From Escherichia phage vB_EcoM-101112UKE3-1, in sequence record MZ234013.1: a stretch of 64,000 bases of DNA; one strand, 5' to 3'. The position numbers and the translations under genes were made by a program. Each line of letters opens with the position of its first letter. Position 1 is the first letter of the stretch. The notes beneath the pieces are model-generated. The model searched no databases, was not told the DNA's origin, and worked only from the letters and a program-made list of their open reading frames with translations. Positions 21,412-31,576 of this stretch are shown here, piece after piece.

Positions 21412-22350
21412 ATGTACAATATTAAATGCCTGACCAAAAACGAACAAGCTGAAATTGTTAAATTGTATTCAAGTGGTAATTACACCCAACAGGAATTGGC
21501 TGATTGGCAAGGTGTATCGGTTGACACAATTCGTCGTGTTTTGAAAAATGCTGAAGAAGCTAAACGCTCTAAAGTTACTATTAGCGGTGATATTACAGTT
21601 AAAGTTAATAGCGATGCAGTTATTGCTCCAGTTGCTAAATCTGACATTATTTGGAATGCATCTAAAAAATTCATTTCAATTACTGTTGACGGTGTAACTT
21701 ATAACGCAACTCCTAATACTCATTCAAACTTCCAGGAAATTCTTAATCTGCTTGTAGCGGATAAGTTGGAAGAAGCGGCACAAAAAATTAATGTTCGTCG
21801 CGCTGTTGAAAAATATATTTCAGGCGATGTTCGAATTGAAGGTGGAAGCTTATTCTATCAAAATATTGAATTGCGATCTGGTTTGGTTGATCGTATTCTT
21901 GACTCGATGGAAAAAGGCGAAAACTTTGAATTTTATTTTCCGTTCTTGGAAAATCTGTTGGAAAACCCAAGCCAGAAAGCGGTATCTCGACTCTTTGATT
22001 TCTTGGTAGCAAACGATATTGAAATTACAGAAGATGGTTACTTCTATGCTTGGAAAGTAGTTCGCAGTAATTACTTTGACTGTCATTCAAATACTTTTGA
22101 TAACAGTCCTGGTAAAGTAGTTAAAATGCCACGTACTCGTGTGAATGACGATGATACACAAACTTGTTCTCGTGGTCTGCATGTGTGTTCTAAATCTTAT
22201 ATTCGTCACTTTGGTAGTTCAACCAGTCGAGTTGTAAAAGTTAAAGTGCATCCTCGCGATGTGGTATCAATTCCGATTGATTACAACGACGCTAAAATGC
22301 GTACCTGCCAATACGAAGTAGTTGAAGACGTTACTGAACAATTTAAATAA
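21412..22350 (+). CDS. rIIB: rIIB protein, 312 aa
   Basis: Length 312 aa; adjacent to rIIA. Confidence 0.9.
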   Translation: MYNIKCLTKNEQAEIVKLYSSGNYTQQELADWQGVSVDTIRRVLKNAEEAKRSKVTISGDITVKVNSDAVIAPVAKSDIIWNASKKFISITVDGVTYNATPNTHSNFQEILNLLVADKLEEAAQKINVRRAVEKYISGDVRIEGGSLFYQNIELRSGLVDRILDSMEKGENFEFYFPFLENLLENPSQKAVSRLFDFLVANDIEITEDGYFYAWKVVRSNYFDCHSNTFDNSPGKVVKMPRTRVNDDDTQTCSRGLHVCSKSYIRHFGSSTSRVVKVKVHPRDVVSIPIDYNDAKMRTCQYEVVEDVTEQFK

Positions 22351-22378: not shown

Positions 22379-22573
22379 ATGTTAGGTTATCAAGCACGAG
22401 TAAAAGAAGAATACGATCAATTAATGCTCAAAATTAATGCACTGAGCAAATTTTTAGAAAGCGCAAAGTTTCTAACAGTTAATGCAGTTGAGCAAGAACT
22501 GTTACTTTCGCAGTTTATCTCAATGAAATCTTATGCTGAATGTCTAGAGAAAAGAATTGCACAATTCAAATAA
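22379..22573 (+). CDS. hypothetical protein, 64 aa
   Basis: ORF with GAGGA SD. Confidence 0.5.
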   Translation: MLGYQARVKEEYDQLMLKINALSKFLESAKFLTVNAVEQELLLSQFISMKSYAECLEKRIAQFK

Positions 22574-22577
22574 AATA

Positions 22578-22599
22578 AGGGCTTCGGCCCTTTTGTTTT
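22578..22599 (+). terminator. intrinsic terminator (AAGGGC-TTCG-GCCCTT + TTGTTTT)
   Basis: Hairpin plus U-rich tract. Confidence 0.65.
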
Positions 22600-22659
22600 A
22601 AGAGAAATTATGATTTATTATATGAATACCAGTGATTCAGACATAAAAGGAAAGTTTAA

Positions 22660-23217
22660 ATGCAGAAAACGAATCCGGGGTTACAGAGACTATTTCAGAT
22701 TCCGACATTTACCCTATCGAACAGTGACTTGACTAGTGAAATGAAGGTCAAAATTGCTGATACTGCAAGATACTCTTTAAAACAAAACCCGAACCAGGAT
22801 AAAGCAGAAGTTATTGAAAGATGTCGTATTGCTGTATACGCAGAGTTTTTTGTAGCAGATTGGCTAAGCGGGTATGTTAATAAAGGTCAAGAAGATGTCG
22901 ATGATCCATATACATACGCGTGGGATGTTTTAGCACATCCAAAATACTGTGGGCTTCGTGTAGAAGTTAAGACACATCAAACTGGCTCACGTTGGATTTC
23001 TGTAACAACAGGATGCAGCGGAGAGTATCCATACGGTTCTGGAATAAATCTAGGGCCCATTCTAAATCATCAAGTCGCTGACTGTATAATTATATTCAAC
23101 ACTAAAGAAATTCATCCAGGTGTTATCCAGTACACTCCGAAGTTCATCGGTGACAGAGAAGACCTTCGTAAGGTTGTAAGAAAAAGCAACTACAATGGAT
23201 GGTATCTTTCCATTTAA
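22660..23217 (+). CDS. denB: endonuclease IV (DenB), 185 aa
   Basis: 185 aa; position downstream of rIIB as in T4. Confidence 0.8.
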   Translation: MQKTNPGLQRLFQIPTFTLSNSDLTSEMKVKIADTARYSLKQNPNQDKAEVIERCRIAVYAEFFVADWLSGYVNKGQEDVDDPYTYAWDVLAHPKYCGLRVEVKTHQTGSRWISVTTGCSGEYPYGSGINLGPILNHQVADCIIIFNTKEIHPGVIQYTPKFIGDREDLRKVVRKSNYNGWYLSI

Positions 23218-23235: not shown

Positions 23236-23265
23236 GTTTACATACCACAAGGACCGTGGTACTAT
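23236..23265 (+). promoter_or_regulatory. T4-type early promoter
   Basis: GTTTAC then 18 nt then TACTAT. Confidence 0.55.
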
Positions 23266-23292
23266 ACAACTATCAGCTACGGAGGAGTAAAA

Positions 23293-23556
23293 ATGAAATT
23301 TAAATTTTATTATGCTAAACATAAAATTACCGGTGAATTTATTGCATTTACGACTTCAACTACAGATGAAGGAGATATTTTTACTGCAGTATTTTTATCA
23401 AAATGGGAATCAGATCAACCTTACTTATCATCACGTGAAGATCTCCAACGATTAGTTAATGGAGAATATAATGATTCATGGTCATATTTAGTCCATGATT
23501 GTGTTAAAAAGGCAATAAAACAAAAACACTTGGAAATCGTTGAGATTGAACTATGA
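23293..23556 (+). CDS. hypothetical protein, 87 aa
   Basis: ORF with GGAGGAG SD. Confidence 0.5.
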   Translation: MKFKFYYAKHKITGEFIAFTTSTTDEGDIFTAVFLSKWESDQPYLSSREDLQRLVNGEYNDSWSYLVHDCVKKAIKQKHLEIVEIEL

Positions 23557-23589
23557 GTTCATTATGTTGGTGTTTTGTTTGGTTAATTA

Positions 23590-23699
23590 GTATTCCAGTA
23601 ATTTGTTTAACATTTACTTTTGTGATGAGGTTATTATGAAAATTGTATTCCAGTAATTTGTTTAACATTTACTTTTGTGATGAGGTTATTATGAAAATT
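23590..23699. repeat. perfect tandem duplication, 2 x 55 bp
   Basis: 23590..23644 is identical to 23645..23699. Confidence 0.9.
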
Positions 23700-23789
23700 T
23701 TGAATTCTGTACTTATTGCGTGTGCATGGTGGGTTGCACAAGTTTCGGCAGTAGTGATTGGTATTCACATTTATTACGAATATTTTTAA
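23691..23789 (+). CDS. small hydrophobic peptide, 32 aa (start lies in second repeat copy)
   Basis: ATG with GAGG SD; hydrophobic; short. Confidence 0.3.
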   Translation: MKILNSVLIACAWWVAQVSAVVIGIHIYYEYF

Positions 23790-23796
23790 AAAAGTT

Positions 23797-23826
23797 GTTT
23801 ACAAGACTGTTCTTCCGTGGTACTAT
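23797..23826 (+). promoter_or_regulatory. T4-type early promoter
   Basis: GTTTAC then 18 nt then TACTAT. Confidence 0.55.
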
Positions 23827-23854
23827 TACCCTATCAACTACGGAGGAACAGAAA

Positions 23855-30764: not shown

Positions 30765-31544
30765 TTATACTCTTGGACCGTATATTGCTCCAACATTTTG
30801 CCATGTTGGAGCGGACCCTATGACAGCATAACCAGCAGCTCCGCCGTTATATTCTGCACCGTTACCATGAGTATTACATCTTCCTCCAGCAGCACCAACG
30901 TTACCGCCCGCACCGCCTGTATATGCACTAAGAGACCCATTACCGACAGATCCTGCACCCGGAGCGTAAATGGTGCCAGCGGTTGCGCCTGTATTCATAC
31001 CAATAGATCCGCCAGGTGCACCAAACGGACGCCCACCGCCGCCGCCAAATACTAGTCGACCCCTGTTACCGCCGCCACCGCCGCCACCGCCGCCTGCAAT
31101 AGCTCCACCATTATTAATTCTTAGTCTCCCACCAATATCGTTTTGAATACAATGACCTCCAGCTGAGCCAGGACTATCCATACCGCCATTACCGCCACGT
31201 CCATACATCGTTACGCCGTGTATATTCAGCTGAACATATTCATTCGGTGTATCTCCATACATGAAGAATAAAGGAACATCTCTAGAATATGATACTAAAT
31301 CACCTGTAATATTAAACACTATAGGTGCATTACCTGCCTCAAAACATCTATCTCGGAACCATTGACCATTGAAGTTATGGTCTGCTCCAAGCGTGTGAAT
31401 AATTTCTCGTGAGCGACCTGCAAATTGACTCATCCAGCAAGGAACACCCAATCTTAATTGACCAGCCGCTTGACTCATCCAGCGCTGACCCGTTTCATTT
31501 ACGGATGAACTTCCAATCCAACCGGGAACACCAACTACTGCCAT
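30765..31544 (-). CDS. 38: gp38 long-tail-fibre adhesin (T2-type, glycine-rich motifs)
   Basis: N-terminus [13 protein letters not shown]...; multiple poly-Gly motifs with intervening variable segments; immediately downstream of gp37. Confidence 0.85.
31033..31095. repeat. low-complexity GCC/ACC repeat encoding poly-glycine of gp38
   Basis: ccgccgccaccgccgccaccgccgcc run on + strand. Confidence 0.8.
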
Positions 31545-31576
31545 AATTATCTCCAAAGGGGCAAAGCCCCTTGTTG

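Follow-up and report, generated by a model that had tools for sequence, protein, structure and literature searches.

A perfect 55-bp tandem duplication between ndd.6 and ndd.5 in the record of Escherichia phage vB_EcoM-101112UKE3-1: most probably an untrimmed assembly overlap

Genes and early promoters around the repeat

The window analysed in this work, a 64,000-nucleotide stretch of the Escherichia phage vB_EcoM-101112UKE3-1 record (MZ234013.1), is assigned by gene content to Tequatrovirus, the T4-like phages, and is oriented in reverse with respect to the T4 map. Genes follow each other in the order rIIA, rIIB, denB.1, denB, an 87-aa ORF, ndd.6, ndd.5 and ndd.4, and ndd, stp, ac and gene 52 are encountered further along. 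The region extending from rIIB to gene 52 is non-essential and made of small genes, and hosts the two adjacent copies of a 55-bp sequence dealt with here (Table 1). The genes at the two sides of the repeat have been identified as ndd.6 and ndd.5 homologues on the basis of both full-length protein similarity and synteny, since they reside between denB and ndd.4. The phage record closest to the window is that of Yersinia phage PYps35T, with 98.8% identity over 24 kb.

The 87-aa ORF located upstream is part of the early transcription unit that also includes ndd.6. The ORF is missing in T4, where about 106 nt of non-coding DNA separate denB from ndd.6, and the exact 87-aa protein is present in 294 blocks of a public protein collection. 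An early promoter-like site of the T4 type precedes the ORF, and probably drives the expression of the 87-aa ORF, ndd.6 and ndd.5; the equivalent site in phage fPS-90 is annotated as a "predicted early promoter". A second site of the same type is found ahead of ndd.4. A sigma-70-type scan revealed only these flanking early promoters, and none within the 55-bp unit.

The two sites are part of promoter and stem-loop cassettes, which bracket the module formed by the 87-aa ORF, ndd.6 and ndd.5. In each cassette the TTTACA-17-TACTAT promoter is followed by a CCGTGG...CTACGG stem, which holds the -10 region within it and extends into a GGAGG Shine-Dalgarno (SD) sequence, and the two cassettes make up a 40-nt direct repeat with 80% identity. 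The stem of the second cassette is 11 bp long (-14.6 kcal/mol, z = -3.8), that of the first is weaker (z = -0.9). These cassettes resemble the PeSL cassettes of T4-type phages, which have been proposed to mediate modular shuffling in this group (PMC2839356, PMC4122927).

Additional differences among relatives have been noticed along the window. The denB segment (22573-23217) is polymorphic (compare loci L003, L004, L012, L017 and L032, among others). The window and some relatives carry an intact 185-aa denB preceded by a non-coding gap; many other relatives host an extra 109-aa DUF7418 gene, and denB is called as a 158-aa product. In OL964735.1 (locus L036, 1-1240) the product encoded upstream of denB.1 carries the rIIB Pfam domain and spans 752 residues, the usual length of rIIB being 312 residues. 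The extra length may reflect a fusion of rIIA with rIIB, a deletion or a mis-called gene in this record. The 994-aa gp37 protein, which forms the distal long tail fibre, has no exact match in a collection of 15 billion proteins, unlike rIIA, gp52 and the 87-aa protein, and is apparently a tail-fibre allele new to the record. The neighbouring ORF, found at the position of gp38, includes a perfect tandem array of three ACCGCCGCC units. On the coding strand ACCGCCGCC reads GGC GGC GGT and encodes a run of glycines, which probably corresponds to a glycine-rich motif of the sort present in gp38-type adhesins.

Table 1. Features of the window discussed in the text
Feature	Position in the window	Strand	Content and evidence
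rIIB	21412..22350
denB	22660..23217
Early promoter-like site, T4 type	23237..23265	+	TTTACA-17-TACTAT, extended TG; sigma-70-type scan
First promoter and stem-loop cassette	23237..23293
87-aa ORF	23293..23556	+	phrog_2390 (function unknown), no Pfam hit; ATGA overlap with the start of ndd.6
ndd.6 homologue, 28-aa predicted membrane peptide	23553..23639	+	phrog_8851 1-28/28, E 7e-17; T4 synteny
Copy 1 of the 55-bp unit	23590..23644	+	last 50 nt of ndd.6, TGA included, and first 9 nt of the ndd.5 frame
GAGG SD in copy 1	23627..23630
Chimeric 6-codon ORF, MKIVFQ*	23636..23656	+	translation; present in the two-copy state only
Copy 2 of the 55-bp unit	23645..23699	+	provides the SD and the ATG of the intact ndd.5
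GAGG SD in copy 2	23682..23685
ndd.5 homologue, 32-aa predicted membrane peptide	23691..23789	+	phrog_5011 1-32/32, E 4e-26; T4 synteny
Second early promoter-like site, T4 type	23798..23826
Second promoter and stem-loop cassette	23798..23854
ORF at the gp38 position	30765..31556	-
ACCGCCGCC x3 tandem repeat	31068..31094
gp37, distal long tail fibre, 994 aa	31577..34561	-

Geometry and distribution of the 55-bp repeat

Direct comparison shows that the two copies are the same 55-mer, with 100% identity, as reported in the initial annotation. The repeat stands alone in the window. TRF scores it 223 (period 55, 2.1 copies), the runner-up array in the 64 kb scoring 54, and when all periods from 25 to 600 were scanned exhaustively, no other exact tandem duplication emerged. 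Given the base composition, an exact repeat of this sort is expected to occur by chance approximately 3e-24 times.

The run of exact period-55 matches is 55 positions long, and the periodic stretch, 23590-23699, therefore measures exactly 110 nt. The repeat does not extend by a single nucleotide beyond 2 x 55 at either side, and the microhomology (h) at its boundaries is 0. The left flank ends with ...TTAATTA and the unit with ...GAAAATT, and the A found before copy 1 thus differs from the T which closes the unit; similarly, copy 2 is followed by a T, while the first base of the unit is a G. The sequence is ...GGTTAATTA before the unit and TTGAATTC... after it, and copies 1 and 2 meet at ...TTATTATGAAAATT|GTATTCCAGTAATTTG..., or, in a shorter form, GAGGTTATTATGAAAATT|GTATTCCAGTAATTTG. 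An origin by slipped-strand pairing between AATTA (23585-23589) and AAATT (23640-23644) was considered and discarded, as the two match at 3 of 5 positions only, and are out of register with the boundary.

The duplicated unit spans from codon 13 of ndd.6 to nucleotide 9 of ndd.5. Copy 1 is therefore coding sequence, a point missed in the initial annotation, its 50 nt derived from the 3' end of ndd.6 being the ones in use, whereas the ndd.6-derived part of copy 2 is a non-functional 3' fragment. As ndd.6 is finished by copy 1, and ndd.5 is begun by copy 2 with an SD of its own, both genes are intact. The GAGG and ATG formerly noticed in each copy are there, GAGG being located in both instances 5 nt before the ATG. 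Translations also agree with the earlier reading of the two starts. The ATG in copy 1 (23636), which overlaps the TGA of ndd.6, opens the 6-codon frame MKIVFQ*, and the ATG in copy 2 (23691) opens the 32-aa hydrophobic peptide MKILNSVLIACAWWVAQVSAVVIGIHIYYEYF. The short frame is made of three ndd.5 codons, followed across the junction by out-of-frame sequence from the 3' end of ndd.6, and its stop lies 34 nt upstream of the ndd.5 ATG.

A comparison with related phages, recommended when the repeat was first noticed, was carried out on 41 related loci retrieved from GenBank, ENA, Logan and IMG/VR (366 kb in total), 31 of which cover the repeat site. The duplication is absent from all the 31. The distance between the ATG of ndd.6 and the ATG of ndd.5 is 83 nt in each of them, versus 138 nt in the window, and when the sequence is aligned to six relatives, T4 among them, copy 1 stands out as a clean 55-nt insertion. 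Aside from the inserted nucleotides, the 261 nt of the window in this alignment match fPS-90 and a Logan contig at every position. In T4 and in every relative examined the TGA of ndd.6 and the ATG of ndd.5 overlap in an ATGA motif, and the surroundings of the motif are identical in 19 of the first 22 loci retrieved.

Searches in larger collections gave the same picture. Among 495 phage records with a match, the best 60 each span about 456 nt, the length of the single-copy form, against 511 nt in the query. A 71-nt query crossing the junction found no match in one piece among 50,697 phage records, a collection which does not include the source genome, but only two-piece matches spanning 60 nt. 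A 34-nt junction sequence had no exact matches in IMG/VR, in JGI metagenome contigs or in GTDB genomes (one per species), and the 48-aa ORF specific to the junction is not on record. Independent assemblies of the same phage were also sought, in order to read their copy number. The exact rIIA of this phage was found on 14 contigs, the best of which is 99.55% identical; contigs carrying the exact gp52 are at most 98% identical, and no contig from either set represents the same phage.

Origin of the duplication

The default k values of the SPAdes assembler are 21, 33, 55, 77, 99 and 127, and the largest default k used with reads shorter than 150 nt is 55. T4-type genomes are circularly permuted and packaged by the headful mechanism. 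A genome of this type would appear as a cycle in a de Bruijn graph assembler, and once the cycle is written as a linear contig, its last k bases would repeat the first k. Should the contig be rotated, or joined end to end, leaving the overlap untrimmed, both copies of the k-length sequence would come to adjoin, and the outcome would be a 55-bp sequence perfectly repeated in tandem, in exactly two copies, at an arbitrary point inside the genome, which in the present case would happen to straddle the ndd.6/ndd.5 boundary. Exactly two copies, 110 nt and zero extension are indeed what two concatenated k-length overlaps give. The process has a published counterpart in the T4-like phage 132 (MZ417521), which was assembled with SPAdes 3.12 from 150-nt reads into a contig with 55-bp overlapping ends, and taken accordingly as a circular genome; in that work one of the overlapping ends had to be removed ahead of re-opening (PMC8483715). 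The window is not phage 132, whose genome is a separate record of the phage collection. Overlaps of 127 bp have been similarly called artefacts by Philipson et al.

That such sequences may escape trimming, and reach public records of the genus, is documented by Escherichia phage vB_EcoM-G3G7 (MZ234040.1), whose identity to the window is 96.8% across the 24 kb compared. At 66463-66716 of this record (locus L030, 22464-22717), inside the essential tail-fibre gene 37, lies a perfect 127-bp tandem duplication. As given, the gene has a stop after codon 258, and has been annotated as two overlapping CDSs (G3G7_132/133). The duplication is missing in the sibling phage G3G6 (MZ234039.1), and apart from it the two records disagree at 2 of 25,374 positions; the genomes measure 168,522 bp (G3G6) and 168,649 bp (G3G7), the difference being exactly 127 bp. 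G3G7 was sequenced by MiSeq 600-cycle (2x300) reads and assembled with SPAdes 3.13/3.14, and forms plaques on 49% of a panel of 47 strains (PMC8614997). A truly broken gene 37 would prevent plaque formation, and the 127-bp duplication is therefore not biological: it is an untrimmed k=127 overlap left in a public record. G3G7 was spotted through the 127-bp length gap with its sibling, and hence proves that the class exists, but provides no unbiased rate.

Measured against this background, the repeat in the window consists of two adjacent identical copies, has one of the default k values as its period, shows no microhomology at the boundaries and is absent from relatives. The Tequatrovirus gene content and the high identity to PYps35T are, in addition, those of a genome expected to assemble as a circle. 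We infer that the genome of vB_EcoM-101112UKE3-1 was assembled and rotated in the manner outlined above, and that the 55-bp duplication is an untrimmed k=55 overlap, brought inside the sequence by the re-opening of the genome; we assign to this interpretation a probability of about 0.8. The record does contain the repeat, which however is most probably not a feature of the phage. The possibility of an assembly artefact had been raised as a caveat when the repeat was first described, and the period of 55, the number of copies, the lack of microhomology and the published 55-bp and 127-bp cases all favour it.

A genuine and very recent tandem duplication, essentially neutral, generated by replication template switching or by illegitimate recombination, would account for the repeat being present in the sequence as given, but is unlikely. 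T4 readily generates tandem duplications (PMC9391042), and the insertion falls in the non-essential region between rIIB and gene 52 and disrupts no ORF. According to the annotation of the 25.5-kb homologous region of G3G6, about 15% of 55-bp duplications placed at random would spare all CDSs. The harmless position is thus roughly a 1-in-7 coincidence if the repeat is an artefact, which counts slightly in favour of a real event that has passed selection. The phage would also be viable, because the SD and start context of ndd.5 is whole and its predicted accessibility is similar in the two forms, the unpaired probability being 0.54 with two copies vs 0.53 with one at the SD, and 0.34 vs 0.40 at the start region. 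The fine structure of the repeat, however, does not fit the known T4 events. The boundaries of T4 duplications and amplifications typically feature microhomologies of 6-10 bp, the range in earlier work being 2-10 bp. One copy of the microhomology is kept between the repeats, and the periodic stretch accordingly measures 2 x period + h (PMC9391042). Here the stretch is 110 = 2 x 55, and h is 0. The unit hosts 50 nt of ndd.6 and 9 nt of ndd.5, thus no complete gene, and no dosage benefit could be selected. That an event of arbitrary length matches exactly a default k is, by our own estimate, a coincidence of about 1%, and the duplication is found neither in the 31 related loci nor in the four collections searched for the junction. 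We estimate that the length match favours the artefact approximately 30- to 60-fold, and the missing microhomology a few-fold, while the harmless position counts against it, also a few-fold.

Were the duplication real, ribosomes ending ndd.6 would restart at the overlapping ATG, make MKIVFQ, and be released at 23656. Translation of ndd.5 would have to start independently, from the GAGG-N5-ATG of this gene, and the expected effect is small. That ndd.5 is no longer coupled to ndd.6 follows incidentally from the duplication, and matches no known regulatory arrangement. A real, recent event which uncoupled two micro-genes in a single step, changing the ATGA overlap into a 6-codon spacer ORF, and which arose without microhomology, is a somewhat more doubtful proposition than a neutral duplication as such. 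If true, the lack of microhomology would point to a non-canonical route, such as a topoisomerase-mediated or an end-joining-like duplication, and the pairing of this phage with single-copy relatives would allow the coupling of uncharacterised membrane peptides to be tested.

It had also been suggested that the recent repeat creates a decoy start site, or a short upstream ORF, able to modulate the expression of the downstream peptide. The anatomy on which the suggestion was based holds, since a second GAGG-N5-ATG and a 6-codon ORF do precede ndd.5. The regulatory role finds no support: the upstream ORF is conserved in none of the 31 loci covering the site, and takes the place of an ATGA overlap which is widely kept. 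Furthermore, the ORF ends 34 nt before the ATG of ndd.5, and is consequently uncoupled from it, the predicted accessibility of its SD and start region is hardly affected by the second copy, and two identical copies bear no sign of maintenance over time. The RNA of the two-copy region is no better structured than shuffled sequences (MFE z = +0.44), and a search for known RNA elements in the repeat yielded only sub-threshold Rfam matches (20 bits, the gathering score being 56), which were rejected. An adaptive duplication, in which the additional SD and ATG tune ndd.5 expression, is thus highly improbable.

Relevance and comparison with known systems

The untrimmed k=55 overlap, our preferred reading, is relevant mainly to data hygiene. 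Overlaps of length k left in the interior of a record inflate genome length, yield false ORFs or frameshifts, as shown by the split of gene 37 in G3G7, and mimic "very recent duplications" in genome scans. Such cases may be filtered, ahead of any biological reading, by searching for perfect repeats in exactly two copies which have a period equal to a common k (33, 55, 77, 99, 127, 141), lack microhomology and are absent from relatives. What the analysis usefully yields is this recognisable signature, together with one more instance, which can be demonstrated, in a GenBank entry. A real duplication would represent a minor polymorphism, probably neutral, in a non-essential region.

The repeat shares some traits with biological systems. 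As the rII, Hp17 (genes 16-18) and dmd-tifA events of T4, it is a head-to-tail duplication located within a plastic, non-essential region of a T4-type genome; however, those events, cited in PMC9391042, range from 0.7 kb to several kb and involve whole genes under dosage selection, whereas 55 bp are duplicated here. The ATGA stop/start overlap found in the relatives is of the kind connecting the coupled genes of T4 early operons. The window keeps the overlap at the end of ndd.6, but the overlapping ATG opens only MKIVFQ*, and the start of ndd.5 is found 55 nt further on, uncoupled. The comparison with G3G7 is of a different kind, because in that phage an essential gene is broken and the artefact is proven, while in vB_EcoM-101112UKE3-1 no gene is broken, and sequence alone does not amount to a proof. 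The closest likeness is to the terminal overlaps produced by SPAdes, with which the repeat shares perfect identity, two copies, a period of 55, an arbitrary position and the occurrence in one record only.
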